Positions 1,044-50,368 are shown, counted from the stretch's first letter. The stretch is 64,000 nucleotides of DNA from Candidatus Daviesbacteria bacterium (GCA_016176465.1 JACOXD010000006.1:7878-71877); one strand, 5' to 3'. A program made the numbers and translations. The notes: generated by a model not told the origin, from the sequence alone.

Positions 1044-3278
1044 TTACACCTTTTCTTCTTTAGGCTTTGTCCATGAAGCATATTTACAATTTGGGTAATT
1101 TTTACATCCATAAAAAACTCTTCCTTTTTTAGTTCTTCTAACTACTATCTCTCCCCCATCTTGGGGGCATTTAGCATTTATTTTTATATCCAGACTTCCT
1201 GTATATTTACACTCAGGGAAGCCTGAGCAAGCTAAAAACTTACCAAACCTGCCTATTCTAATTACTAAATTTTTGCCACAATTAGGACATTTTTCATCTG
1301 TCATTTCTAGCTCTAATTTAACTTTTCCTGCTTTTTCTTCTGTTTTTTCTAATTTTTCTTCAAAAGGAGTGTAAAAATTTTTTAAAGTTTCTTTCCAGGG
1401 TCTCTCACCCCTTGAGATCTCATCCAATTGATCCTCCATATTAGCCGTAAATTTATAATCAAAAACATCTGGAAAATATTTAATTAAAAAATCCACTACA
1501 GCTATCCCTAAAGGTGTTGGGAATAATTTTCTTTCTTTTCTTTCTATGTAGTAGCGCTCTGTTATTGTGGCTAAAATTGGGGCATAAGTAGAAGGTCTAC
1601 CTATCCCCAGCTCTTCCAGTTTTTTAATTAAAGATGCTTCAGTATACCTGGGAGGAGGTTCAGTAAAGTGTTGAGAAGGCAACACCTGAACCATATTTAA
1701 ATCTTCCCCCTCACTAAGTTTTGGCAAAATCTGCTTTCTTTCATCTTTATCCTGAGCGTCCGCAGTGAGCGAAGCCGAACTGGAGTCGAAGGACTCTTCC
1801 TCAACTTGTTTTACCCCATATACACCCAACCATCCATCAAACTTTAAAACAGAGCCAGTTGCTCTAAGAAGATATTTATTCTTTGGGGGTCCTGCCAGCT
1901 CGGTATCTCGTCGTACCTCCTCATCTTGTAACAACTGCGCTGCGGGGGTGCGCCGAGACCTCTCCTCCCTGTCACCCTCCAAAGAGGTAACTACATCCAC
2001 AGTAGTCTGATCTAAAACAGCCTCATTCATTTGAGAAGCAAGCGTCCTTTTCCAAATTAGATCATAAAGTCTGCCATGATCCCTTGTCAGACCATTCTGA
2101 ATTCCGACATCCGACATCCGATATCCGATCTTGGTTGGCCTAATAGCCTCATGAGCCTCCTGGGCATTTTTTGATTTGGATTTATAAAATTTAGGCTGAT
2201 GGGGTAAATAAGCTTTGCTAAAATTTGAGGAGATATAAGCTCTAATAGCTGATAGCGCTGATTGAGCTAAATTAAAAGAATCAGTTCTCATATAAGTGAT
2301 TAACCCTTGCTCATAAAGGTTTTGCGATAACATCATAGTTTTTTTTGCTGTAAAGCCAAGTTTGTTCCCAGCATTTTGAACTAAAGTAGAAGTGATAAAA
2401 GGAGGGGAGGGGTAGCGTTTAACTTGCTTTTGCGTTATTTTAGAGATCTGATAACTAGCTTCTTTTAGATCAGCTACAATTTTATCTGCTTCTTTTTTGT
2501 CTTTTACATCTGCCTTTTTACCATTTACCTCAATCAGTTTGACAAAAAAGTTTTGCTTTTCAGTATTTTCCAATTCTACTTCTATAACCCAGTATTCTTG
2601 TGGTTTAAACTTCTCAATTTCTCTTTCTTTTTCTACTATTAACCTTAAAGCAACAGATTGAACTCTACCTGCAGATAATCCTCTTTTTATTTTTTGCCAA
2701 AGTAGGGGGGAGAGTTTATAACCTACCAGCCTATCTAAAACTCTCCTAGCTTGTTGAGCATCTACCAATTTTATGTCTATATCTCTTGGGTTTTTAAATG
2801 CATCATCTATAGCTTCTTTAGTAATCTCATGAAAAACGACCCTTTTTATTTGGACAGATTTGGACAAATTCTTTTCTGTTCTATCACCTCCTACTGCCAA
2901 ATCGTCCAATCGAACTTCTCTCTGATCTTGTCCACTTTTAACTTTTAACCTCGGGCCCCCGGATGGGAGTTTAACTTCAGGATTACTCAGTAATTCTGCT
3001 GTGTGCCAAGCAATAGCTTCACCTTCCCTATCAGGGTCTGTGGCTAACCATATTTGTTTAGCTCCCTTTGCTATCTTTTTAAGCTCATTTACCCTTTTTC
3101 TTTTATCTCTGGGAATAATATATTTAGGTTCAAAGTTAGCCTCTATATCTATTCCTAATTCAGCCTTAGGTAAATCCCTAATGTGGCCCATTGAGGCTTC
3201 AATTTGGTAACTATTTCCTAGAAACCTCGCTAGAGTGCGTGCCTTGGTAGGGCTCTCTACTATTACAAGATTATTCAT
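1044..3278 (-). CDS. topA: DNA topoisomerase I
   Basis: N-terminal Toprim segment MNNLVIVESPTKARTLARFLG. Conserved QHFTEPPPRYTEASLIKKLEELGIGRPSTY. C-terminal Cys4 zinc ribbons (CPNCGK...CSGFPEC, CPQDGG...CKNYPNC). Confidence 0.9.
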   Translation of the reverse strand: MNNLVIVESPTKARTLARFLGNSYQIEASMGHIRDLPKAELGIDIEANFEPKYIIPRDKRKRVNELKKIAKGAKQIWLATDPDREGEAIAWHTAELLSNPEVKLPSGGPRLKVKSGQDQREVRLDDLAVGGDRTEKNLSKSVQIKRVVFHEITKEAIDDAFKNPRDIDIKLVDAQQARRVLDRLVGYKLSPLLWQKIKRGLSAGRVQSVALRLIVEKEREIEKFKPQEYWVIEVELENTEKQNFFVKLIEVNGKKADVKDKKEADKIVADLKEASYQISKITQKQVKRYPSPPFITSTLVQNAGNKLGFTAKKTMMLSQNLYEQGLITYMRTDSFNLAQSALSAIRAYISSNFSKAYLPHQPKFYKSKSKNAQEAHEAIRPTKIGYRMSDVGIQNGLTRDHGRLYDLIWKRTLASQMNEAVLDQTTVDVVTSLEGDREERSRRTPAAQLLQDEEVRRDTELAGPPKNKYLLRATGSVLKFDGWLGVYGVKQVEEESFDSSSASLTADAQDKDERKQILPKLSEGEDLNMVQVLPSQHFTEPPPRYTEASLIKKLEELGIGRPSTYAPILATITERYYIERKERKLFPTPLGIAVVDFLIKYFPDVFDYKFTANMEDQLDEISRGERPWKETLKNFYTPFEEKLEKTEEKAGKVKLELEMTDEKCPNCGKNLVIRIGRFGKFLACSGFPECKYTGSLDIKINAKCPQDGGEIVVRRTKKGRVFYGCKNYPNCKYASWTKPKEEKV
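1741..1995. repeat. two GC-rich in-frame insertions in topA resembling the palindromic MITE-like element family
   Basis: nt 1741-1810 (atcctgagcg...cgaagcc...ggagtcgaaggac) matches copies at 35.7 and 50.2 kb. The segment 1900-1995 is GC-rich. In the protein these flank the native FRLKARGRILRFDGW-equivalent segment and add about 20 and 33 residues relative to E. coli TopA. Confidence 0.45.
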
Positions 3279-4767: not shown

Positions 4768-7278
4768 TTAACTAAGCATGTCTACACCCACCTCAATATT
4801 TTCTCCTTTAGCAATCTGATTATTTAAAATCATCATAGCTAATCTAGCTTCTAAGGTATCTTGGATTAATCTTCTTAAGGGTCTTGCCCCCAATACAGGA
4901 TCAAATCCTTTTATAGCTAATTGCTTAACTAATCCCTCTTCAAAGCTGATTAAATATCCTTGATCTTTCATTAAAGAAGCTAGTGATTTAAGTTTAAGAT
5001 CAACAATTTTTGTTAAGTCTTCAGCAGATAAAGGTTTAAAAATCACAACAGAGTCAAATCTATTAACTAACTCTGGCTTAAAAATATTTAATAACTCCTC
5101 CTTTACGCCTTCTTCCAAATCAGCCAGGCTCGCTCCTTTGGCTAACCCATTAGCAATAGTTAAAGAAGCCGCATTTGATGTAGCAATAATAATAGAATTG
5201 GTAAAATCTATTTCCCTTCCAGAACCATCTGTTAAATGTCCATCATCTAAAACCTGTAAGAATAAATTTAGGATATTTTTATTGGCCTTCTCAAACTCAT
5301 CTAAAAGTAATAAGACATAAGGCTTGTTTCTTATTTGATCTGTTAAAACTCCAGGGTTTTCTTGGGTACCAATTAACCTATTTAGAGAATCTTCGTTTTG
5401 GTATTCACTCATATCAAAGCGTAGATAAGCTCCTCTATCCTTAAAATAGATCTCAGCTAGTGTTTTAGCTAATTCTGTTTTCCCAACCCCTGTTGGGCCA
5501 ACAAATAAAAATGAACCTATTGGCCGATTTTCTTCCCGCAAAGCTGCTGCAGCTCTTCTTAGGGTATCTGCTACTGCTTTAACAGCTTCTTCTTGGTCAA
5601 TCAATTTTTCATGGATTAAGTTTTCTAAATTTAATAATCTATCTCTTTGAGTACTACCAACAGCCTCTAGTGGGACATTTATTCTTTCTGATAAAACTTT
5701 TTTAACTTCATAAGTTGTAATTTTGCCATCTTTTTCTAGTGCTTCTGCCTCATTTAAAATTGCTAGCGCACTATCAGGCAAAACTCGATCGTGAATCAGC
5801 TTAAATGAGAGTTCCACCATTTCTTTTATTGCCAGATAATTTACTTTAATTTTTTTATCCTTCTCTAAATTAATGGCGTATGTTTGGAGAACCTTTATAG
5901 TATCATCCTTACTTGCTGGTGGAACTTCTACTCTGGTAAATAGCCTAACTAGTGCAGAATTTTTTTCTAGAATCTTGGAATAACTCTCTGATTGGGTTGA
6001 ACCAATAAATTGAAACTCGCTTGATTCTAAATGGGGAAGCATCAATGAAAATAAATTAAACTCAACTCCGACCTCGCCAATTCCTAGGTTTGATATCTCA
6101 TCTACATAAATAATAATATCATCGGCAAACCTTACTTCTTCAAAAATGTTTTTAATTTTCTCTGCCAAAGATCCTTGAGTTGATACTCCAGACATTAGTT
6201 TACCCAAATCCAGCCTAACTAATCTTTTTGTAGCCAAACTGGGAGGTGCATCCCCTGTGACAATTTTTTTGGCTAAATAATTTACCAAAGTAGTTTTTCC
6301 TGCACCTGGAGGCCCTACTAAAATTACATTTTTATCTTTTTCTTGAGACAAAATATTAACAACCTCAGATAAGACTTCCTCCCTACCTATAAAATCTGGG
6401 AATCCTTTGGTAGCAGCCATTTTGGTTAAATCTTCTGAAGCAGAATCTAGTGAGGGGGTTGGAACACCCAGCCAACCCCTATTTACCCCTTTTAAATGTT
6501 TGACGCTAAATTTATTATCCCAAATATAAACAGCTTGCCATGTATTTTTTTTAAGTTGCAAGTAACTTATGGTGTTTTCAAAATCAGCAAGATTTAAGTT
6601 TAACTTTAAAAGCTCCTTATCAATTAAGGGGATTGATTTAAGCATTGCCAGAAAAAAGTAACCTTGATCGAGCGACTTTGCATTATTTTTTTTAGCCAAA
6701 GATAGAACTTCCTTATATATAGCATCTGTTATAGGGATATTGAAATTTTCAAAATTGGTTTTATCTATTTCTAAGTTATTTAATATTTCTTGAACCGCTT
6801 TTGACTCTAAGATTTTTTTCCAAGTTAAATCTATTTTTTCAAGTTTTGTAGCATCTAATATTTCATCGGGTTTTTTTATTTCAGCCAAACTTTTTCTTGG
6901 TAAAATCATTACTCTTAATGCAAACAATCCCAATCCTAAAATAAATATAACTTTAAGCATTAAACTTAAAAAAATAGGATTTGGGATAAAAATTAATATT
7001 GGCAGTGCAAACCAAATTAATGCTATAGTTAAAATTGCCAAAGTGGCAAACACAAAGGCTATTAAACCAATCAAGATTCTAAAAAGCCTAAAAATTACAC
7101 TTAATACTCTGCCAACAATTGATGAGTCATGGAAAAGGGGTACAAAAAGCAACCTGGCCATTAAAAAAACTGCTAAATCCTCCTCCAGTAAGGCTATAGT
7201 ATTGGACCAAATCATCATAAATGTAAAAAAAGAAGAAGGATACCAAAACTTAACTATTCTTACGGGCAACTCAAACAT
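4768..7278 (-). CDS. ClpC/ClpB-family AAA+ chaperone ATPase with N-terminal transmembrane extension
   Basis: Two Walker A motifs (LVGPPGAGKTTLV and FVGPTGVGKTELAK). Clp C-terminal GARPLRRLIQ. About 130 N-terminal residues are strongly hydrophobic (3-4 predicted TM helices). Confidence 0.85.
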   Translation of the reverse strand: MFELPVRIVKFWYPSSFFTFMMIWSNTIALLEEDLAVFLMARLLFVPLFHDSSIVGRVLSVIFRLFRILIGLIAFVFATLAILTIALIWFALPILIFIPNPIFLSLMLKVIFILGLGLFALRVMILPRKSLAEIKKPDEILDATKLEKIDLTWKKILESKAVQEILNNLEIDKTNFENFNIPITDAIYKEVLSLAKKNNAKSLDQGYFFLAMLKSIPLIDKELLKLNLNLADFENTISYLQLKKNTWQAVYIWDNKFSVKHLKGVNRGWLGVPTPSLDSASEDLTKMAATKGFPDFIGREEVLSEVVNILSQEKDKNVILVGPPGAGKTTLVNYLAKKIVTGDAPPSLATKRLVRLDLGKLMSGVSTQGSLAEKIKNIFEEVRFADDIIIYVDEISNLGIGEVGVEFNLFSLMLPHLESSEFQFIGSTQSESYSKILEKNSALVRLFTRVEVPPASKDDTIKVLQTYAINLEKDKKIKVNYLAIKEMVELSFKLIHDRVLPDSALAILNEAEALEKDGKITTYEVKKVLSERINVPLEAVGSTQRDRLLNLENLIHEKLIDQEEAVKAVADTLRRAAAALREENRPIGSFLFVGPTGVGKTELAKTLAEIYFKDRGAYLRFDMSEYQNEDSLNRLIGTQENPGVLTDQIRNKPYVLLLLDEFEKANKNILNLFLQVLDDGHLTDGSGREIDFTNSIIIATSNAASLTIANGLAKGASLADLEEGVKEELLNIFKPELVNRFDSVVIFKPLSAEDLTKIVDLKLKSLASLMKDQGYLISFEEGLVKQLAIKGFDPVLGARPLRRLIQDTLEARLAMMILNNQIAKGENIEVGVDMLS

Positions 7279-35724: not shown

Positions 35725-35917
35725 TAAGCGTCATCCCCTCGGGTCTGAGCTCCCCGAGTCTGAGCCTCGGAGTCGAAGACCTGAAGCGCATTAGTAATTG
35801 TCATCCTGAAGCGCGGGCCCCTTTAGGGAGGAAGGATCTCAGGATCTAGATTCTTCGCCTTCGGCTCAGAATGACAAAAAAATATCAGAATGACACAATA
35901 AGTCAGAACGACACAAT
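35725..35917. repeat. composite of two adjacent palindromic MITE-like elements (two subfamilies)
   Basis: gcgtcatcccctcgggtctgagc...ggagtcgaagacctgaagcgc followed by tgtcatcctgaagcgcgggcccctttagggaggaaggatct...gctcagaatgacaaaaaaatatcagaatgacacaataagtcagaacgacaca. Confidence 0.8.
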
Positions 35918-36997: not shown

Positions 36998-38884
36998 ATG
37001 GGTAAAGCTAAACTGTTTTTAATTCTAACTTTTTTTCTATTATTTTTTCTCCTAACACCCAAGGTTTATGGACAAGGAGGTTCAGGTGGAGTTATTAAAC
37101 AAGAGGATACTCCATGTCCCAATACACCAGTAATCGGGGATGCATGTGAATGGGTTGACGACAATATAATCACACCTGTTAATCAATGGGGTTGTGATAA
37201 TTTTGGGAAATGCAGTGACGAAGGACGAGACCCTATCACCCCAACTCCAGAAGAACCAAACCCCACTAATCAATCAGCTACATCAGAGGGCGATGATCCC
37301 CCTCCTAATTGCGGAATCGTACAATTTGTATGTAATGCGGTAGAACCAATAGTTGATGCAGGCGAGTCAGCAGTTGAAGCTGGAGGGGGTGTTGTTGAAA
37401 CAGTTAAAACTGCTGTTGGTGACGCAGTTACCAGTGTTACATGCGGAGTAGCTGGAGTTTGGTGTGGAGACGACAACTCCTCATCCGCTCAAGGAAGTGA
37501 TCAAGAAACTAGTACTAATGATGAAGATGGTAATAGTAATCTTCCAGTTCCTGCTGATAGGGGTAACAGGAATGATGAAGATAATGACCGTATTCCGGAT
37601 GATGAAGATGTTTGTCCTTACAGAGCAGGGCCTAGAAGAAATGTAAATAATGGGTGTCCTATTAGTACAACTGGGCAAGGCCAAGAAGACCAAGGACAGA
37701 GTGCTACCTCTGATTGTAATACACTTGGATGTCCGCAAGGCAAACAATGTCTTCCACTTAGCATTGTAGGAGGTGATCCAAACACTTTTAGATGTATACT
37801 TAAAGCAGCTTTAAATGATTGTAGGACTAAGGGTTGTCCAGATCCAGTAAATCAAGTATGTACTCAAATAGGAACTAGTGGAGCTTGGGGTTGCCCAGGG
37901 ATTAACACGCCTGGAGCTGGAGTCAAAAATGAAACTCCTTATAATCCAGCTAATGATCGAGATGGTGATGGAATACCAAATATTAATGGGGAGGATGTTT
38001 GTCCAGATTCCAGGGGACCTAGAAGGGCTGTTAGAAACGGCTGTCCAGCTGGGCCTGATCCTGACTTTGAAGAAGCAGATTGTAATGGTAGGTGTGGAAT
38101 CAATGATATGGTAAACTTTCCGCGCTGTCTCTATGTCGCCGCAGGATTATATGCGTGTTATGCTAATGACCCATCAGCTGAGGTTCCCTCACGGACAAGA
38201 GAAGTAGAAAATCAAGCAACTATAGCAACCAATGGGGAGTATCGACCTGGTCAATCCACGCAGTTCACCCCTCCCTCTAATCCTAATTTATCTGATGTAC
38301 CTTGTATATACACAGATCTAAAAGGAGGAGAAAATAAGTGTTATATAGGAAAATGTAGAAAAGATCACTTGGAAGATTGTACTTTTAATAATTGGTGTGA
38401 ATACTCACCTGATATTCATAGACAAATAGATTGTCCAAGCAGACCCCAGGTATGTATTTATCCTCAGAAAGAAACAACTGGGGATGCTTGTTATTATGGA
38501 ATCTGTGAAGGTGATAATTGTAAGCAGGGACAAGTATCAGACCAATGTGCGTATATGGGAGGGTTGGGACAAAAATTAAATAGCTGCCCAACTGGCTCTA
38601 CTACTTCTGCCTCTAGTCAAGGATCAGGAGGTAGTAAAGGGTTAAGAGAGATCTGGATATATGAACAGCCTTTTTCAAATGATATTCCTGTTAAGAAACT
38701 CCTCCCTTCAGATTGTAATTTTATTTCAGGCAATCTATTATGTAACTACAAATTCAGGGATAATATAAAAGAACCAAAAACTATTTATGTTAGATTTATA
38801 TCTAATGAAAAAGATCTCAATACTCCAGATCCAGATGACTATAAATTTAAAGATGCAGAGCCATTAAGAATTGATAGGAACTAG
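36998..38884 (+). CDS. secreted Cys-rich protein with thrombospondin type-3-like Ca-binding repeats and a C-terminal Cys-rich module shared with ORF 43701
   Basis: Signal peptide. Two DxDxDGIPDxxDVCP...GPRRxVxNGCP units. C-terminal PCIYTDLKGGENKCYIGKC...QIDCP...VCIYPQ...CYYGICEG...GQKLNSCP. Confidence 0.6.
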   Translation: MGKAKLFLILTFFLLFFLLTPKVYGQGGSGGVIKQEDTPCPNTPVIGDACEWVDDNIITPVNQWGCDNFGKCSDEGRDPITPTPEEPNPTNQSATSEGDDPPPNCGIVQFVCNAVEPIVDAGESAVEAGGGVVETVKTAVGDAVTSVTCGVAGVWCGDDNSSSAQGSDQETSTNDEDGNSNLPVPADRGNRNDEDNDRIPDDEDVCPYRAGPRRNVNNGCPISTTGQGQEDQGQSATSDCNTLGCPQGKQCLPLSIVGGDPNTFRCILKAALNDCRTKGCPDPVNQVCTQIGTSGAWGCPGINTPGAGVKNETPYNPANDRDGDGIPNINGEDVCPDSRGPRRAVRNGCPAGPDPDFEEADCNGRCGINDMVNFPRCLYVAAGLYACYANDPSAEVPSRTREVENQATIATNGEYRPGQSTQFTPPSNPNLSDVPCIYTDLKGGENKCYIGKCRKDHLEDCTFNNWCEYSPDIHRQIDCPSRPQVCIYPQKETTGDACYYGICEGDNCKQGQVSDQCAYMGGLGQKLNSCPTGSTTSASSQGSGGSKGLREIWIYEQPFSNDIPVKKLLPSDCNFISGNLLCNYKFRDNIKEPKTIYVRFISNEKDLNTPDPDDYKFKDAEPLRIDRN

Positions 38885-38916: not shown

Positions 38917-40110
38917 ATGACCCTTTTAGAAAAAATCAGAAATTCTCAAATAGGACAGTTACTAGATAGAAAAAATTTTAAAAACTTAGTTATTGTTGTA
39001 ATTTTACTCCTGCTTTTACCTATTGCCTTATTTTTAATCTCTCAGCAAGCCAAGTATAAATCACAAGCAGCAACAGCAGGAGTGCAAGTTGCAAGAGATA
39101 ATCGAATACAAAAAGATAGTAATCCTCCAGTGGCTTTAGGTGATGAGATTGGTCTAATTTTAACTTCTCCTTTTGATGTGCCTGGAGGCAATCAAGCAGG
39201 TGGACAACCAGTAAGTTCACAGACCCAATCAGGATTGGATGCAGCTAAAATAGCTAGGTGTGAAGCAATCCCTCATTGTAGTGGTGCCAACTGTACTTTT
39301 GAGGTTAAGTTTTATAAAAACGGTCAAAAACAATCTTCTGGCTACGAAATAGCTTGGGAAGCTAATGCAGGGGATGCAAGATTTACCAAACAAGATCCTT
39401 CTAAGCCTGCTGGAAGCTGTAACAAAGACCATCCTGAAAATTGTATTCCTGAAAGTGGGGATCCAAAAGCAATTTCTGGCTGGTTATCTTTAACAACTCC
39501 TAATGATAAAGGTGATGTTGCTACTGATTCCAAGGTATCTATTGACTATGGTAATGCTGCTGAGGGGCCTTATACAGCTAAATTTAATATAAGAACCAAT
39601 GATGACCCAGGTTTATTTGCCTCTTGCCAAGTAAGGGTTTTGAGCCCAGGAGGTATAGCTTCAGGAACAGGAGCTGATATTGGTTATAACTGCTCCAGAG
39701 CCTGCAATGGACAAATTAGGGTTCATGTATTTGAAGATCTAAATGGGAATAAGAAGTTAGACAATGACCCCTCTATAGATGATGTATTAAATGGGGCAAA
39801 AGTAAAAATTGTCAGCACAGATGATTCTAGGGACCACGTAGAGATTACCAGGATTACCCAAGATAGAGGAAGAGCTTACTTTGACTGTATTCCAGCCAAA
39901 CAAGTTTCACTAAAACCAAATTGTATACCAAATGATAAAGACGACTGTACTACAAATGATGGTATAAAATATAGTGTAACTTTGCAATCAGTTCCTTCAG
40001 GCCACTCACTTCCTTCTGTAAATGTAAGCACCTCTCCTAACTTAGATTCCTGCAATGATACAGATGATGTTAACTTCCCTTTACCACCCAGCTTCGGGGC
40101 CAACCGTTAA
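38917..40110 (+). CDS. secreted/anchored hypothetical protein
   Basis: 397 aa with N-terminal signal-anchor. Cys-containing extracellular region. Confidence 0.5.
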   Translation: MTLLEKIRNSQIGQLLDRKNFKNLVIVVILLLLLPIALFLISQQAKYKSQAATAGVQVARDNRIQKDSNPPVALGDEIGLILTSPFDVPGGNQAGGQPVSSQTQSGLDAAKIARCEAIPHCSGANCTFEVKFYKNGQKQSSGYEIAWEANAGDARFTKQDPSKPAGSCNKDHPENCIPESGDPKAISGWLSLTTPNDKGDVATDSKVSIDYGNAAEGPYTAKFNIRTNDDPGLFASCQVRVLSPGGIASGTGADIGYNCSRACNGQIRVHVFEDLNGNKKLDNDPSIDDVLNGAKVKIVSTDDSRDHVEITRITQDRGRAYFDCIPAKQVSLKPNCIPNDKDDCTTNDGIKYSVTLQSVPSGHSLPSVNVSTSPNLDSCNDTDDVNFPLPPSFGANR

Positions 40111-40160
40111 GATTGACTAAACCCCTAACTACCTATTAAGTAAGATATTGAGATAGTGTG
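40109..40160 (+). promoter_or_regulatory. repeated promoter motif (attgactaa...ta(t)tcta), copy 1 of 3
   Basis: TTGACT -35-like box. Related sequences at 40463 and 41345. Confidence 0.4.
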
Positions 40161-40183
40161 CCTTTTTTGTTAATGTAAAGCAT

Positions 40184-40453
40184 ATGTTAACTGTTGATGA
40201 TATTAAAAAATTAGCTGAGGTTTTTGTTACTAAAGAAGAGTTAAAGCAGGAAGTTGAAAAACTTTTAACTAGGGATGAATTTAATGAGAAATATGACAAG
40301 ATTATGAACATGCTTGATAAAGTTTATGGTGAAGTAAAGACTATGCGAGAGGAACAAGCAGCTCACACTCAGAGACACGAGGACGTTGAAAATCGCCTAA
40401 TCAAAATAGAGACAATCCCCTCTGTTGCTCATGAACTTAAAAAGAAACTCTAA
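40184..40453 (+). CDS. small coiled-coil hypothetical protein (paralog of the 14976 ORF)
   Basis: 89 aa, heptad-rich, shared N-terminal motif. Confidence 0.4.
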   Translation: MLTVDDIKKLAEVFVTKEELKQEVEKLLTRDEFNEKYDKIMNMLDKVYGEVKTMREEQAAHTQRHEDVENRLIKIETIPSVAHELKKKL

Positions 40454-40462
40454 AAAGTTTAG

Positions 40463-40583
40463 ATAGAATTGACTAATTCCCTCTTAAGTCTTATTCTAAA
40501 GATGGACTAAAGATCTGCCACAAATGCTAATAAAGAAGATTTTGAACTCCTAAGGTCAGGAAACCCTAATATTTCCAAGGATT
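40463..40583. repeat. ~120-bp direct repeat copy A (duplicate of promoter + first ~20 codons of gene 41404)
   Basis: About 85% identical to 41345-41464. The reading frame is disrupted here. Confidence 0.7.
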
Positions 40584-40610
40584 GCATAAGTAGGTGGTAT
40601 TATTTTAATA

Positions 40611-41195
40611 ATGGTCATCTTCATTGATGAATCTGGTACTCATAAACAATCTGATCATGCAACTATTGCTTTAGTTTATGTAGAAATAACAGATTTGGAA
40701 ATCTTTGAGCAAGCTGTTGAAGGGATTGAAAAAGGGCTTGGTATTAAGTACTTCCACTGGACTGATGAAAAATGGCAAAAGAGAGAAAAATTTATTGAGC
40801 AACTTTTAAAGTTAGATTTTACTTTCAAGGTAGCCATTTTGGAAAATCCTGTTAAACTTTCCAAGGATCTAGAAGAAATATTAAAACACCTTGTGGTTGA
40901 AGAAAATATCAGGAAAATTATTCTTGATGGCAGAAAACCTAAGTGGTACAACCAACGGCTTAAAAAATTACTTAGAGATAAAGGAGTATCAGTAAAAAAG
41001 ATTGTAACAATCAGAAAAGATGAATCTAGCCCTGGAATAAGAGTAGCTGATTGTTTAGCAGGACTTGTCAGAACTTCCTTTGATAATCCAGACTCTTTAG
41101 CTTCCAAGCTATATAACAAATTGAAAAAAGCAAACAAGGTTAGATTTGAATTAACTGGTTACTCGCATAAGCAGAGCTTGCGACCTTCGGTCTAA
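40611..41195 (+). CDS. DUF3800-like protein
   Basis: N-terminal IFIDESG motif and later RVADCLAG, as in DUF3800 proteins. Bracketed by the 120-bp direct repeats. Confidence 0.5.
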   Translation: MVIFIDESGTHKQSDHATIALVYVEITDLEIFEQAVEGIEKGLGIKYFHWTDEKWQKREKFIEQLLKLDFTFKVAILENPVKLSKDLEEILKHLVVEENIRKIILDGRKPKWYNQRLKKLLRDKGVSVKKIVTIRKDESSPGIRVADCLAGLVRTSFDNPDSLASKLYNKLKKANKVRFELTGYSHKQSLRPSV

Positions 41196-41344
41196 AAAAA
41201 GCCCCGCTTAAAGCGAGGCCAGTTGTACAAGTAGTTCCAAATTGCTTGAAACTCGGCGGCTCACCGTCCTTTGTCCCTGCCAACTTGTTGTAGCTGTATG
41301 TTACCACAATTATTATATTAATGTAAAGACATATTTCTTCTTAA

Positions 41345-41464
41345 TAGATTGACTAGTCCCCATTTAAGCTTTATTCTAAAGATAGATATAAATTCTGCCT
41401 TAAATGTTAAGTAAAGAAGATTTTGAACTCCTAAGATCAGGAAATCCTAATTTATCCAAGGATT
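41345..41464. repeat. ~120-bp direct repeat copy B (native promoter/5' end of gene 41404)
   Basis: See copy A. Confidence 0.7.
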
Positions 41465-43692
41465 TTAGGAAATTAAAGTTTGTACTAATTATTTTAATAG
41501 TATTAACTTTTATAATTATTGCTACTCCTTTAGGAGTTTATTTAGTAATAGAAAATTCAAATAAAGATTCCTCTCTAGCCTCCTCCCAAAACTCTAACCT
41601 TTTATACAATACAGGAAGACAAATTTATAATTTAGGGAGTGCTGCAGCTGCTAGATTAGGACTAGCTTCATCGGATACTACCTTTACAGGGAATATTATT
41701 GCACACGAAGGCGAAGGAGGACATATATTAGCAGGGCCTCCATTATCTGATACAGGCAGATCTAATAAAGAAGATATAAAAATAAGAATTGAAGCTCCTG
41801 TAGGCACTACTAAAGTTATCTTATCTGATGCGTTTAGATTAAATTATCCTTTTCTAAACGCACAAGGCATGCCATCTTGCACTGACTCTCAAACAGGACA
41901 AAAATTAAGTAGTTGTCAGGAAATAACAAATTTTATTTATTCAGATGGTAGCACGGATGTTGACTGGAATTTAAAAAGAGGAACAAACCAAATTCAAGCT
42001 TTGTATATTATTGATAATCAGTTTGATTTAGGTAATGCCAGTACAAGTAATATCTTAAGTGTTTTTTATGATCCTGTTTGCATGGCGCAAAGATTAATTG
42101 ACAGTGAGGGAAATCCTATCTCACTTGATTATATTGATACTGATCCTGATAGATATTACAGTAGCTTATATGCAACTGAAATTTATAGCTGTAGTGAAGA
42201 AACAGGTTTTTGTGATGGTAGACTTTTATCCCCTGGTTATGCATGCCAGATTTCAAACCCTACTGAAAGGGATATAACTGGGACCATTAGAACGTGTGTA
42301 ACAAAAACACCTGGTGGATCACATCTACAAAGTATTCAATGTACTGCCAACATAAGACCTTGTAATCCACTAGAGGTAGGAGGTTCTAATGAAAGTATAC
42401 TAGACGCTCTCGTAGACAGTTTAGTCGAGGATTTAACCGTTGGAGAATACTGTTACATAGAAGGGACTGCAAATACTTATTCTGAGGATACAGGGCATAT
42501 AGTTTTAGGCGCTACAGCTGTTAGTTCAGAAACTGTCAGAGCACTTGAGCAAAGAGCCTCAAACGGACAACTTTCTCCTGAAGAATTAAGTAGATTAGAA
42601 AGAGTCAGAGCCATTCAAAGTAGACAAATTGCCCAACGCATGGGAGAAAATATAAGCGGAGGAGGCAGAGTCAAAGCCTTATTAAGAATCGCCTCAGTTG
42701 CGGTCTTAGTCCTTCCCCATATCGCTGGTATTGTTAGTAACATTCCAGGAGGGGTAACTGTTGGAGACAATATTACACCTCCAGTTATAGAGGGTATCCA
42801 ACTTTGTGAAAATGTAACTGATCCTACTCAGTTTTGTATTGATGGAGAGACTGGTGAACTATGGTTTTATCCCGCATTTCTAAATAGTTTTGGACTAGGT
42901 ATACAAAATGCTAATATAAAGCGTTTTTCACTCCCTAATATGCTCAATAGGTTTGTAAGGTATGATCCCACAGGAAGAGCAAATTTAGTAGACGAGAATG
43001 GTCGTGTCGCAATGGTGGTTGACGCAGGTTTAAAACTAAGCCGTTTACATGAAAGTGCCAATAATTTGACTGGACGAGTTTTAAAAGAAATCTTTCCTAA
43101 TAAAAATTTCCGAGTTTTATTAAATGAAGGTAGTGGAGGTGTTCTCTGGCAAGATATCGGGGAACCTTCCTTAGTTTATAAGGTAGCTTTTCCTTTAGAT
43201 GATGTGCCAAAAGATACTGATTGGGAAAACTGGTATTCAAGTTATCGTCATTCTGATGATACCTACCAACGGAACGAGGCTAAAGTAATAGCTTTATTAA
43301 ATCAATACGGTCTTACGCCTCGCTTGCATTTATTTGTTCCATCCAGCGCGAATCCTGACCCTATACCAGGAAGGGTTTTAGATACAGTGGAAATCCCAAT
43401 AAGTAGACAGACTTCCAGAGTACCTATTATTGTTATGGACTATGTAGAAATTAATGAAGATAGGTTGGATCAATTACCCGAAGAACAAAAAAGACAATGG
43501 GCGTTAAGAACGGCCCAGATATTAGAAAGTTTACGACTTTTCCCGGCGGATACTGAAATAGTTTTTGATGAAATATCAGGAACTATAAAATTTGTAGATT
43601 TAGGAGGTATGTCTGAGAAATACGATGGGTTAGTTGAACATTTTGGTTCTCTTTATGAAAGACTCAGTAGTCTGCTTCAGATTACTCCTTAA
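41404..43692 (+). CDS. large membrane-anchored extracellular protein
   Basis: 762 aa with N-terminal TM anchor. Shares the GQKLSSC motif with neighbouring Cys-rich proteins. Confidence 0.5.
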   Translation: MLSKEDFELLRSGNPNLSKDFRKLKFVLIILIVLTFIIIATPLGVYLVIENSNKDSSLASSQNSNLLYNTGRQIYNLGSAAAARLGLASSDTTFTGNIIAHEGEGGHILAGPPLSDTGRSNKEDIKIRIEAPVGTTKVILSDAFRLNYPFLNAQGMPSCTDSQTGQKLSSCQEITNFIYSDGSTDVDWNLKRGTNQIQALYIIDNQFDLGNASTSNILSVFYDPVCMAQRLIDSEGNPISLDYIDTDPDRYYSSLYATEIYSCSEETGFCDGRLLSPGYACQISNPTERDITGTIRTCVTKTPGGSHLQSIQCTANIRPCNPLEVGGSNESILDALVDSLVEDLTVGEYCYIEGTANTYSEDTGHIVLGATAVSSETVRALEQRASNGQLSPEELSRLERVRAIQSRQIAQRMGENISGGGRVKALLRIASVAVLVLPHIAGIVSNIPGGVTVGDNITPPVIEGIQLCENVTDPTQFCIDGETGELWFYPAFLNSFGLGIQNANIKRFSLPNMLNRFVRYDPTGRANLVDENGRVAMVVDAGLKLSRLHESANNLTGRVLKEIFPNKNFRVLLNEGSGGVLWQDIGEPSLVYKVAFPLDDVPKDTDWENWYSSYRHSDDTYQRNEAKVIALLNQYGLTPRLHLFVPSSANPDPIPGRVLDTVEIPISRQTSRVPIIVMDYVEINEDRLDQLPEEQKRQWALRTAQILESLRLFPADTEIVFDEISGTIKFVDLGGMSEKYDGLVEHFGSLYERLSSLLQITP

Positions 43693-43700
43693 CTAAACTA

Positions 43701-45077
43701 ATGAATCAATTTTCCCAAAAAACTATCTTTGACAATCATATTGAAGAGAACTATCCTAAGTTAGTAAGTAAAACTCAATTAATGTTAAGTATTTTATCCA
43801 AGCTAATTATACTCTCAGTAATATTGATACTTATTTTATTAGGAATCCCTTATATAGAAGGTGGAGTATTAGGCTCTGATACAGATGTACCAAGTACAGG
43901 TAGTGATGCATCAACCATTCTCGAACAAATCAACAAGAGAAATGAGGCACCATCATCGAATCAAGGCTGGGAATTAGATTCTGCTGAAGGTCCTTGGCAA
44001 ATTTGGAAATCGAGCGAAAGAATATTACTTTGGGACCAAAGAAGTAACCATAGAGCAGTAGTTATTCGACGTACTCCTAATAACTGGGAAAGTTTAATGC
44101 TATTAAGGAGTGTCCTTAATCAGCAAATACCAGTAGGTACACAAGGTTTATTAAAATTTAATATTGCTCCTCCTGGTGATCCTGAACCACCCCCTTTTTC
44201 AACTGTTACTACTAACGAATTCTCTAATAAAGCCTGTGTTTACTCCCAGCTCGATAATGGTATAGAAAATTGTTATTGGGGAAATTGTAAAGATTCTTCT
44301 AAAAATTGTGGGAGTACTGTTAATGATAATTGTACATATATCCCTGGTAAATCTTCTGGAGAAAAATTATCTTCCTGTCCAGTAGGAGATATCTCTAACT
44401 TAACTCCTTCAAACTATACTATTACTGATCTCTCCTTTAACCCCCCTTGTATCTACTCTGAAGGAGAGAATAAATGTTTTGTAGGAAGGTGTGAGGACAG
44501 TTTAGGAAGGGGTTGTTCATTTAGCAATAATTGTAAATATAATCAAGCTACTCATCAGCAGATAGATTGTCCAGGAAGTGGGGGTAATGTAGATATCTCA
44601 GGTAATGTTTGTATCTATCCTCAAGCAGGAGCTAGTGGTACCTCTTGTTACTATGGAGTGTGTACTAAAGAAGCAGAAGCACAGGGTAAATGTAAACCAT
44701 ATACTGTATCAGAAGGATGTATCTACTCTTCAGGTTTTGGACAAAAACTAAACTCTTGTCCTGCATCAGGGAGTTTAATAGCTAACCCCTCATTGCTGGA
44801 GAGGGCTGCTGGGTTGCTTGGGCTAGGAAGTAATAAATATTTAGTAAAAATAGAAATAGATGATGATCCTAACTTTATAAATGTTTCTTCTGATAATATA
44901 TATAAGGGAGAAAAATTAAATAGTTTAAGAAAAGAGGGTGGAAGTATAATTATTCCAAGCTTTAAACTATCTCCAGCATCTCAAGAGAATAGACAAATAT
45001 GTGTAAGATATACCTCTAATTTAGGAGATACTAATTCTCCACCATGTATATCTATTAGGAAAACTCCTGAACTTTAA
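43701..45077 (+). CDS. membrane-anchored Cys-rich protein with two copies of the CxY...ENKC[YF]xGxC...GQKLNSCP module
   Basis: Paralogous to the C-terminus of ORF 36998. The two C-termini align over about 120 aa with conserved Cys spacing. Confidence 0.55.
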   Translation: MNQFSQKTIFDNHIEENYPKLVSKTQLMLSILSKLIILSVILILILLGIPYIEGGVLGSDTDVPSTGSDASTILEQINKRNEAPSSNQGWELDSAEGPWQIWKSSERILLWDQRSNHRAVVIRRTPNNWESLMLLRSVLNQQIPVGTQGLLKFNIAPPGDPEPPPFSTVTTNEFSNKACVYSQLDNGIENCYWGNCKDSSKNCGSTVNDNCTYIPGKSSGEKLSSCPVGDISNLTPSNYTITDLSFNPPCIYSEGENKCFVGRCEDSLGRGCSFSNNCKYNQATHQQIDCPGSGGNVDISGNVCIYPQAGASGTSCYYGVCTKEAEAQGKCKPYTVSEGCIYSSGFGQKLNSCPASGSLIANPSLLERAAGLLGLGSNKYLVKIEIDDDPNFINVSSDNIYKGEKLNSLRKEGGSIIIPSFKLSPASQENRQICVRYTSNLGDTNSPPCISIRKTPEL

Positions 45078-45225: not shown

Positions 45226-45540
45226 TTAGGCCAATTCTGCTCTATGCTGTAGGATATTTGCCCAAGTTAAAGCCTTTTCAGCCCATAATAGTCTATTTTT
45301 CCCATTAATTTGTTGTTTTCTTAAGTTTTTATACTCTTTTTTGAAGTTATTCAGAGTACTCTTGAACTTTTCACTAACTTTCTCAGACTGCAGATCACTT
45401 AAATAAGTATCTGTTTGATGGAAAAATCTTTCAATTAACGGGATTTTTTCTTGATAGTCAGCTTGCGCAACCCAGCCTCCAATTCTCCCCATATTTACAG
45501 AAATATTTAAGATTTGAATGTTTTTTGGTAAGTCTCTCAT
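45226..45540 (-). CDS. hypothetical protein
   Basis: 104-aa ORF overlapping the upstream ORF by 4 nt (operonic). Confidence 0.4.
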   Translation of the reverse strand: MRDLPKNIQILNISVNMGRIGGWVAQADYQEKIPLIERFFHQTDTYLSDLQSEKVSEKFKSTLNNFKKEYKNLRKQQINGKNRLLWAEKALTWANILQHRAELA

Positions 45541-45932
45541 AACAATAATTTAGTAATTATTTTATCAATTTTTTCTCTAATTTCAGGGGCGGCTACTATT
45601 CGGCTTGGATTATCCTGATTTGGTCTAACATTAATCATTGAGTCATAATCTATTTTTTTTGTCTTTATATCTACTCCTGCTCCCCATAAATTTTCTTGAC
45701 TACATCCATATTGAAGCAACAGTCTTTCCTTATCATAGTGCATTTCTCCACCGCCCGCTAAGATTTCTTTCTCTATATCCACTACTACCTTAATATAATC
45801 TCCATACTCGTAGCACATTTTCTCAATCTCATTATCATTAGCTTTTTTTTCTCTAAGAATGATAATTGGCATCGATAAATTATAGCATTTTAAAACACTC
45901 TTAAAATATAGATCTTTTTTAGCCTCAAGCAA
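45537..45932 (-). CDS. hypothetical protein
   Basis: 131-aa ORF. Confidence 0.4.
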   Translation of the reverse strand: MLEAKKDLYFKSVLKCYNLSMPIIILREKKANDNEIEKMCYEYGDYIKVVVDIEKEILAGGGEMHYDKERLLLQYGCSQENLWGAGVDIKTKKIDYDSMINVRPNQDNPSRIVAAPEIREKIDKIITKLLL

Positions 45933-50226: not shown

Positions 50227-50368
50227 TGTTATCCTTTCGGGTCTGAGCCTCAGGGTCGAAGACCTGATCTTTCCTCTCGTCATCCTGAGGGCAAAACCCG
50301 AAGGATCTAGTCTAGAGATTCTTCACTTAGTACGCTCAGAATGACAATGAGTATACTTAGAACGACAC
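50227..50368. repeat. MITE-like palindromic element (composite subfamilies) between GT2 genes
   Basis: gttatcctttcgggtctgagcctcagggtcgaagacctg...cgtcatcctgagggcaaaacccgaaggatctagtctagagattcttc...gctcagaatgacaatgagtatacttagaacgacaca. Confidence 0.8.

Follow-up and report, generated by a model that had tools for sequence, protein, structure and literature searches.

A DUF3800 gene and its DUF3800-II small RNA form a compact cassette between duplicated gene-start sequences in a Candidatus Daviesbacteria genome

DUF3800 genes occur beside structured RNAs, an association of protein and RNA that has remained unexplained since 2017. Weinberg et al. (2017; PMC5737381) described DUF3800-II as one of 11 RNA motifs located next to DUF3800 genes and proposed no function for it. 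The protein family has been described with an N-terminal D-E motif and a C-terminal QxxD motif, and likeness to RNase HII was reported earlier for the DUF3800 protein of type VII retrons (PMC7736814). DUF3800 genes also lie beside Cas12a2/a3, Cas13 and type VII retrons, where their role is likewise unexplained. Here we analyse a DUF3800 locus in a 64,000-nt stretch of a Candidatus Daviesbacteria genome (GCA_016176465.1, JACOXD010000006.1:7878-71877; hereafter the window), in which a DUF3800 gene and a convergent DUF3800-II small RNA (sRNA) gene form a compact, relocatable cassette with two promoters. The cassette lies between direct repeats of the promoter and 5′ end of the downstream gene, which encodes a 762-aa protein. 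The reading that suits this duplication best is a recombination scar, of an ordinary sort, left by insertion of the cassette.

The core of the locus is a further example of the gene–RNA association already described and no new kind of system. Like the published DUF3800-II motif (PMC5737381, RF02961), the RNA stands beside a DUF3800 gene, ends in a Rho-independent terminator, has a covarying structure and passes the gathering score; nothing essential sets it apart. For this clade of the Candidate Phyla Radiation (CPR), our analysis adds a strictly convergent layout with sharp limits (about 0.72–0.76 kb), extended −10 elements and thus promoters for both partners, a putatively leaderless open reading frame (ORF) and, by structural modelling, an intact catalytic set of the RNase HII type. 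The unit changes genomic location, and at some loci it is flanked by duplications of the end of an adjacent gene. The locus offers a well-defined entry point to the DUF3800–RNA problem through its RNA ends, promoters and predicted catalytic residues.

The DUF3800 gene and its convergent small RNA gene

The DUF3800 ORF (40611–41195, plus strand) encodes a protein of 194 aa with a predicted RNase HII-like fold. Its family assignment, proposed in a first-pass annotation of the window made from the sequence alone, was borne out by Pfam: PF12686 matched at E 1.2e-11, its 45.9 bits lying above the cut-off of 21, with protein residues 3–155 corresponding to profile positions 2–148 of 149. Alignment of 40 family members revealed D6, E7, D106 and D147 to be invariant. 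At the QxxD site the window protein has R-V-A-D in place of the Q-L-A-D that is the consensus of the family; the glutamine is replaced here and the invariant D147 is kept. Foldseek comparison of the AlphaFold2 model (predicted local distance difference test score, pLDDT, 86.5) returned archaeal and human type 2 RNases H as best matches, led by 1eke_B (E 3.5e-6, probability 1.0, template-modelling (TM) score about 0.5), with the RNase HII structures 1eke, 1io2 and 3puf spanning E values of 3.5e-6 to 1.2e-4. Retroviral integrase cores were weaker structural matches, and a sequence-level search of the PDB with the same protein matched nothing. We take D6, E7, D106 and D147 to lie near the positions, and in the same elements, of D7, E8, D112 and D149 of M. 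jannaschii RNase HII. In agreement with published remarks, the structural model points to an enzyme like RNase HII whose DEDD set is intact. Type 2 RNases H are linked to the protein as its best structural matches and by the presumed placement of its four invariant carboxylates, and it differs from them in its low sequence identity (13–16%) and in being paired with a dedicated structured RNA.

Genome and metagenome collections provided 73 related loci, nearly all of them from CPR bacteria of the Microgenomates group. At least 159 relatives of the DUF3800 protein were found, and the gene-plus-RNA layout is identical in about 40 non-redundant CPR loci. In the window, the hairpin that the first-pass annotation had placed with the DUF3800 ORF between the repeats is not a free one but the intrinsic terminator of a minus-strand DUF3800-II sRNA gene, and the partner RNA had been missed. 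This gene, terminator included, occupies 41195–41300 (minus strand) and is convergent with the DUF3800 ORF. RF02961 matched at 41217–41291 on the minus strand with 55 bits against a gathering score of 43.2 and over the full model (positions 1–69); the terminator stem lies at 41220–41200 on the same strand, and its T-run overlaps the DUF3800 stop codon.

Both partners have promoters of their own. The sRNA promoter (41298–41327, minus strand) consists of a −35 element, TTTACA, at 41327–41322 and an extended −10 element, TGGTAACAT, at 41306–41298. Of 40 non-redundant loci, 35 have an extended −10 in this position, and the −35 region is kept in position to about 41328. On the plus strand, the cassette's own extended −10 element, TGGTATTAT, at 40595–40603 ends 7 nt before the DUF3800 ATG; half of the non-redundant loci (20 of 40) have an extended −10 that ends 4–9 nt before the DUF3800 start codon, whereas the background rate is 1.1%. 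Because the element ends so few nucleotides ahead of the start codon, the sequence implies a leaderless DUF3800 mRNA. With this element present, a dependence of the cassette on the duplicated promoter was rejected. The plus strand after the DUF3800 ORF has no terminator of its own, so the DUF3800 mRNA probably reads antisense through the sRNA gene.

A covariance model (R1) built from ten close RNA copies scored the window sRNA at 121.5 bits and yielded 60 matches in the fetched loci, all of them directly 3′ of the DUF3800 gene and on the opposite strand. The sRNA was present in every fetched locus with enough 3′ sequence, save a distant subfamily (L017, L051, L053, L054 and L059) and two loci with only a gene fragment. 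In an alignment of 41 distinct sequences, compensatory changes on both sides were seen for 24 of 30 pairs; pairing was retained in 95% of cells, compared with 30–49% when partners were slid, and none of 500 shuffles reached the observed values. The sRNA is more conserved than the coding DNA (mean column identity of 86% among close relatives), and no variable, guide-like segment was found in it among close relatives. The sRNA looks like a fixed partner or substrate of the protein rather than a programmable guide.

Toxin–antitoxin modules provide a comparison for such a pair. Type I modules are convergent and antisense and encode a small membrane peptide; type III modules are RNA–protein systems in which a ToxN-type RNase is accompanied by an RNA repeat array. 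The DUF3800 cassette resembles them as a compact protein plus small RNA in variable regions, with a convergent RNA terminator that overlaps the ORF end, and differs in its 194-aa RNase H-fold protein and in its RNA, which forms one structured unit where type III modules have repeats. In a transposon sequencing (Tn-seq) study of Legionella, a strain-specific DUF3800 gene scored as essential, alongside antitoxins (10.1101/2020.10.01.323287). By analogy, this essentiality is a lead toward an addiction-type module and not evidence for the present DUF3800 family. Our working guess is that the cassette is a selfish, addiction-type or defence-type protein–RNA pair whose enzyme would bind or process the structured RNA.

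Limits, relatives and locations of the cassette

The cassette extends roughly from 40584 or 40592 to 41330 or 41343, about 0.75 kb. Window DNA could be aligned to that of some 40 related loci solely between 40592/40602 and 41309/41313, just inside the flanking repeats. The closest relative (L078; 89% protein and 82% DNA identity) has ychF and a gene with an NYN domain as neighbours and lacks flanking repeats. Because homology stops inside the repeats and the closest relative lies in an unrelated context, the DUF3800 gene and the sRNA gene constitute a relocatable cassette; the conserved layout and the conserved extended −10 elements of both genes mark it as a compact two-promoter unit. The cassettes L003 and L004 share 718 bp at 88.6% DNA identity and nothing beyond, and a single contig carries two cassettes (L004 and L013). 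None of the proteins neighbouring the window cassette recurs in any other fetched locus. A search for recurring partners of DUF3800 genes, as suggested in the first-pass annotation, gave no constant protein partner: an all-against-all comparison of flanking ORFs returned synteny groups only.

There are three such groups: L003, L006, L020 and L037 near tRNA-His; L015, L016, L052, L055 and L060 between two glycosyltransferase genes; and L019 and L028 after secA. They show long vertical residence of cassettes. The genes directly beside the cassette nevertheless change from member to member of a group, one site can house different cassette subfamilies, and some cassettes survive as pseudogenised remnants (L019 and L020). 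In L019, the DUF3800 pseudogene (5976–6330) has lost residues ~13–88 and carries a 36-nt tandem duplication at its 3′ end, and the sRNA gene downstream of it is intact (117.5 bits).

Several observations concern the edges of the cassettes. Some cassettes have no spacing at all: in L055, L016 and L052 the start codon of the following gene directly adjoins the −35 element of the sRNA promoter, and in L015 and L016 the upstream gene stops 3–7 nt ahead of the DUF3800 ATG. Genes for NYN-domain proteins (PIN-like RNases) lie near three cassettes (in L003; in L011, 8094–8678; and in L078, 2401–2937), and in L003 (4380–5015 and 5054–5106) a solo right end of a cassette, comprising the sRNA promoter region (85% to L004 and L014), follows directly after the NYN gene. 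Near the sRNA-promoter side, tRNA genes are found in L006 (6602–6674), L024 (5155–5227), L008 (1080–1155), L034 (4646–4720 and 5691–5766), L003 (7365–7439) and L014 (7716–7789); nearly all are on the strand opposite to DUF3800, and tRNA-His is found in three syntenic loci. We rejected integration next to tRNA genes as a rule: minus-strand tRNA genes within 60–190 nt occur in L006, L024, L008 and L034, most loci have none, and no tRNA duplication resembling an attachment (att) site was found.

Flanking repeats and their origin

The cassette is bracketed by two direct repeats, which we call copies A and B (40463/40468–40583 and 41344/41348–41464 by repeat search and blastn). They are 82.9% identical over 117 nt, close to the roughly 85% estimated at first pass, and a 1-nt indel divides the alignment into two blocks, one of 63 nt with 76% identity and one of 53 nt with 92%. 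Their local alignment score of 76 far exceeds that of dinucleotide shuffles (11.1 ± 1.6; z ~40). Copy B (41344–41464, plus strand) contains the functional promoter, the leader and codons 1–20 of the 762-aa gene (41404–43692, plus strand), of which the TTGACT promoter and the codons had been read from the sequence at the outset; this sigma-70-like promoter, TTGACT-17-TATTCT, lies at 41349–41377. Copy A (40463–40583, plus strand) is a pseudo-copy of the same promoter, leader and first 20 codons. It has the identical promoter motif at 40469–40497 and an ATG at 40524, and a 1-nt deletion in codon 3 leads to a stop after nine codons; since this frameshift closes its reading frame so early, copy A is a dead duplicate of the start of the 762-aa gene. 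The third promoter copy that had been proposed before a gene for an 89-aa coiled-coil protein (40184–40453, plus strand, between this copy and copy A) is also real, although weaker. This copy 0 (40109–40192, plus strand; TTGACT at 40113), the oldest and most diverged, matches copy B at ~62% over 85 nt with a score of 21, above the maximum of 17 in 500 shuffles (10.4 ± 1.6). The 64-kb window holds no further copies of 0, A or B, and the repeat is therefore not a dispersed one.

The reading that we prefer, as a tentative choice, is that the cassette was placed before the 762-aa gene and that the duplication stems from host recombination of imported DNA, with no transposase. For the order of events and the recombination route we infer the following. 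A self-contained cassette of ~0.75 kb would have come to lie immediately upstream of the 762-aa gene when a fragment or circle from a related strain brought in the cassette along with the adjoining promoter and 5′ end in the version of that strain. One-sided homologous joining, either Campbell-type integration or homology-facilitated illegitimate recombination, would then have left the resident and imported versions of ~120 bp flanking the cassette. Downstream copy B still serves the 762-aa gene, upstream copy A is a frameshifted relic, and an older event of the same kind probably put the 89-aa gene behind copy 0. Taken as such, the scar would show how small genes are wedged ahead of resident genes in reduced genomes without silencing them.

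The substitutions between copies A and B hint that one of them may have been imported with the cassette from a relative. In the promoter and leader the copies disagree at 14 of 60 aligned sites, whereas the coding part has 5 mismatches in 59 sites (Fisher p=0.043). Three of the four changed codons are synonymous (TTA/CTA, AGA/AGG and AAT/AAC) and one exchanges Leu for Ile; as a random substitution in the coding part of the repeat has a 20–30% chance of being synonymous, p is about 0.05–0.10. Import is favoured because the coding part is spared and the changes are mostly synonymous, as if the copies had diverged as working genes in two lineages. This pattern also bears on an in-situ origin of the repeats, whereby the target would have been duplicated at insertion, through staggered nicks that were filled in or through template switching like that of fork stalling and template switching (FoSTeS) or microhomology-mediated break-induced replication (MMBIR), and the upstream copy would have decayed afterwards. 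Neutral decay of the left copy should neither spare the former coding part nor favour synonymous sites, although the statistics are weak. An in-situ duplication would fit the frameshift in the left copy and the position of the repeats, ~10–15 nt from the homology limits of the cassette.

It would also fit the lengths of the duplications at other loci, which are locus-specific and include coding ends of neighbouring genes. There are three clean cases in which the duplication holds a neighbour's coding end: the window (117 nt, 5′ end of the downstream 762-aa gene), L060 (46 nt at 93%, 5′ end of the downstream glycosyltransferase gene) and L028 (37 nt at 86%, 3′ end of secA). These are not dispersed repeats, because the duplicated stretch includes the coding end of the neighbour. 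Further cases may be L063, where the repeat is a promoter, and L059/L079, with 74 nt at 96%; most cassette loci have no flanking duplication. Each synteny group has only one member that carries a repeat, and the duplication therefore need not date from the primary insertion; repeats thus arise secondarily, which adds to the hints of import. The repeat in L060 is far better preserved than the syntenic cassettes, whose DNA identity is 60–71%. With the cassette predating the repeat in syntenic groups and no enzyme for long staggered cuts in evidence, we regard in-situ target duplication as somewhat unlikely, though a serious rival of import.

Flanking repeats were further evaluated by upstream-versus-downstream local alignment scores at 37 non-redundant cassette loci. 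Nine of the 37 reached a score of at least 14, compared with ~1% of mismatched pairs and 1.8% of 602 random 700-bp segments; in a control centred on genes, 6.8% reached this score and 1.9% a score of at least 20. Repeated intergenic sequence is thus common in these variable regions, as it is in L081, where a leader-like repeat is present in 4–5 copies within 6.5 kb, and the promoter copies at the window locus might have come first, by tandem duplication or as a local promoter family, with the 89-aa gene and the cassette landing or being shuffled between them later, which was the second option of the first-pass annotation. Three colinear copies in a row, each ahead of a gene, would agree with such an order. 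We nevertheless consider it improbable: copies A and B contain 20 codons of one orphan gene and so more than a promoter, the 64 kb hold no additional copies, and it is not obvious why a duplicated gene start should have pre-existed without its gene.

Similar scars also occur around genes other than DUF3800. Right beside a DUF3800 cassette in L033, a 59-nt direct repeat (2574–2632 and 3214–3272, 86%) containing the promoter and ATG of the following 982-aa gene brackets a minus-strand ORF of 122 aa that is not DUF3800, and copies 0 and A of the window likewise bracket the unrelated 89-aa gene. Because like scars flank such genes, the duplication mechanism looks host-general. A duplication made at insertion by a function of the cassette itself is disfavoured by this scar at a non-DUF3800 gene together with the single repeat-bearing member per synteny group.

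Known processes of two kinds offer a comparison for the scar. In homology-facilitated illegitimate recombination or a Campbell-type single crossover, an insert ends up flanked by a resident and an imported stretch and no dedicated enzyme is involved; this would agree with the variable lengths and with scars around unrelated genes. Some integrating elements, such as phage 21 and e14 in E. coli icd and islands in tRNA genes, carry a substitute end of the gene that they enter. The window locus shares with these elements the diverged direct repeats with a gene end that flank the insert, the intact gene and the mostly synonymous differences; it has no integrase or att core, the insert is only ~0.75 kb, and close relatives of the cassette do not have this repeat.

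The first-pass annotation had read the locus as a gene cassette integrated with target duplication. What stands of this is a discrete cassette with relatives elsewhere and a dead left duplicate; a target-site duplication of the transposon kind is unlikely, because there is no transposase, there are no terminal inverted repeats and the lengths vary. DUF3800 is the sole ORF of the cassette, in which Pfam, PADLOC and PHROGs revealed no transposase; the best end-to-end inverted match scored 9.5, within the range of shuffles (mean 7.1, maximum 12), indicating no terminal inverted repeats; and in place of a short duplication of fixed length we found 117, 46 and 37 nt, and none at most loci. The direct repeats do include the end of a target gene (promoter and 20 codons of the 762-aa gene), as in att-type islands. 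No tyrosine or serine recombinase is encoded between them, and Pfam detected no recombinase domain in the neighbouring ORFs scanned and no integrase domain among six neighbouring ORFs. In contrast to integron cassettes, the repeated units here are copies of a promoter and 5′ end, not imperfect palindromes. As for retrons, no reverse transcriptase was found in the cassette or its neighbours, the RNA matches RF02961 and not a retron RNA, and PADLOC gave weak matches only, to the DUF3800 models of type VII retrons (E 5e-4 to 1e-2).

A different proposal is that the DUF3800 protein and an RNA cofactor form an autonomous mobile element that makes long, variable target duplications. It draws on the RNase H-like fold with its intact DEDD set and the weaker structural matches to retroviral integrase cores, on the strict protein–RNA pairing, on the presence of the cassette in many contexts and twice on one contig, and on the somewhat enriched flanking repeats. 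The cassette, however, has no terminal repeats and no conserved ends beyond its promoters, its RNA has no variable guide-like segment, the same scars are found at non-DUF3800 genes, cassettes are inherited vertically over long periods at syntenic sites, and no near-identical copies were seen at different sites; we judge this proposal to be highly improbable. If it were true, an autonomous protein–RNA element would represent a mode of transposition or homing not described for bacteria. More broadly, a minimal autonomous element of ~0.75 kb, with an RNase H-fold enzyme and RNA cofactor, that inserts at gene boundaries with long variable duplications, or alternatively a new addiction class in which an RNase H-like protein checks a toxic structured RNA, is quite improbable in our estimate.

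Returning to host recombination of imported DNA, five points weigh against it. First, neither an empty site nor a donor allele was found, so that the order of events and the import are what we infer; exact look-ups of the DUF3800, 762-aa and 89-aa proteins returned the same arrangement only. Second, the tests for synonymous change and heterogeneity are marginal and rest on 5 and 19 substitutions. Third, one-sided recombination requires competence or circular intermediates, and neither has been seen for this organism. Fourth, the repeats at L007, L029, L011, L003 and L081 are dispersed repeats, similar to repetitive extragenic palindromes (REP) or miniature inverted-repeat transposable elements (MITE): the first three share a terminator-like sequence, 'GAACTTTTTGG', and the other two a leader-like one, 'TTTGTACCCAGATAA'. 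Fifth, once dispersed repeats are left out, the enrichment is moderate, with a score of at least 20 in 4 of 37 cassettes versus 3 of 161 control genes. A general rule by which cassettes make long target duplications was rejected, as both the gene-centred control and the dispersed-repeat cases undercut it.

Contig L077 ends on the last base of copy A and is uninformative on an empty site, L002 ends 80 nt past the DUF3800 stop, and L021 ends at the right edge of the cassette; these breaks of independent assemblies at repeat or cassette edges could reflect strain heterogeneity or low coverage. For the DUF2779 protein upstream of L059, the search for an empty site turned up an identical contig, L079, arranged alike, and otherwise relatives at no more than 68% whose neighbours differ.

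Neighbouring genes and dispersed elements

The 89-aa coiled-coil gene belongs to a genuine small-protein family: a family search gave 210 cluster representatives with E ≤ 1e-3, of which 44 reach E ≤ 1e-10, and most of the alignments begin at residue 1. Its protein has no match in Pfam or PADLOC, and its PHROG matches are weak and of unknown function. The 762-aa product, a membrane or surface protein from the gene with the duplicated 5′ region, is an orphan; the search for homologues returned only itself, as an NCBI entry from Candidatus Daviesbacteria, and Pfam gave no match.

Around the cassette lies a run of orphan, Cys-rich predicted surface proteins (36998–38884, 38917–40110, 41404–43692 and 43701–45077), for which no Pfam domains and no homologues in the fetched loci were found. 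The 628-aa and 458-aa members have the motifs CIYPQ...C(Y)YG(I/V)C and GQKLNSCP in common, and the run looks like a fast-evolving surface-protein island. A DUF5674-family gene (45537–45932, minus strand) is located 4.3 kb from the window cassette. In L003, L006, L024 and L037, homologues at 39–40% are found within a few kb of the cassette, not always in one orientation, and this proximity may be remnant synteny or coincidence.

The leader-like repeat is ~90–150 nt long and ends in CTTTGTACCCA(G/A)ATAA followed by an extended −10 element. Several copies can occur per locus, before different genes including DUF3800, as in L081 (304–389, 1374–1416, 2850–2998, 3732–3880 and 4199–4228) and L020 (5909–5998 and 6558–6613); the repeat is likewise found upstream of the cassette in L003, L004 and L006. 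It could be a MITE-like mobile promoter.

A dispersed intergenic hairpin, NNCUGAG-N5-9-CGAAGNN (often GTCATCCTGAGCGAAGTCGAAGGATC), has a stem that covaries between copies. Lying upstream of some cassettes, it was evaluated as a cassette-specific RNA ('CUGAG...CGAAGG') and rejected, being dispersed genome-wide and present in the window far from the cassette. Its positions there are 35758–35780, 50241–50263, 50283–50305, 1763 (plus strand) and about 60404 (minus strand). The hairpin also occurs in L003, L006, L007, L011, L029, L033, L061 and L008, often adjoining the cassette; it resembles a REP-like element that these CPR genomes carry and is not specific to the cassette.

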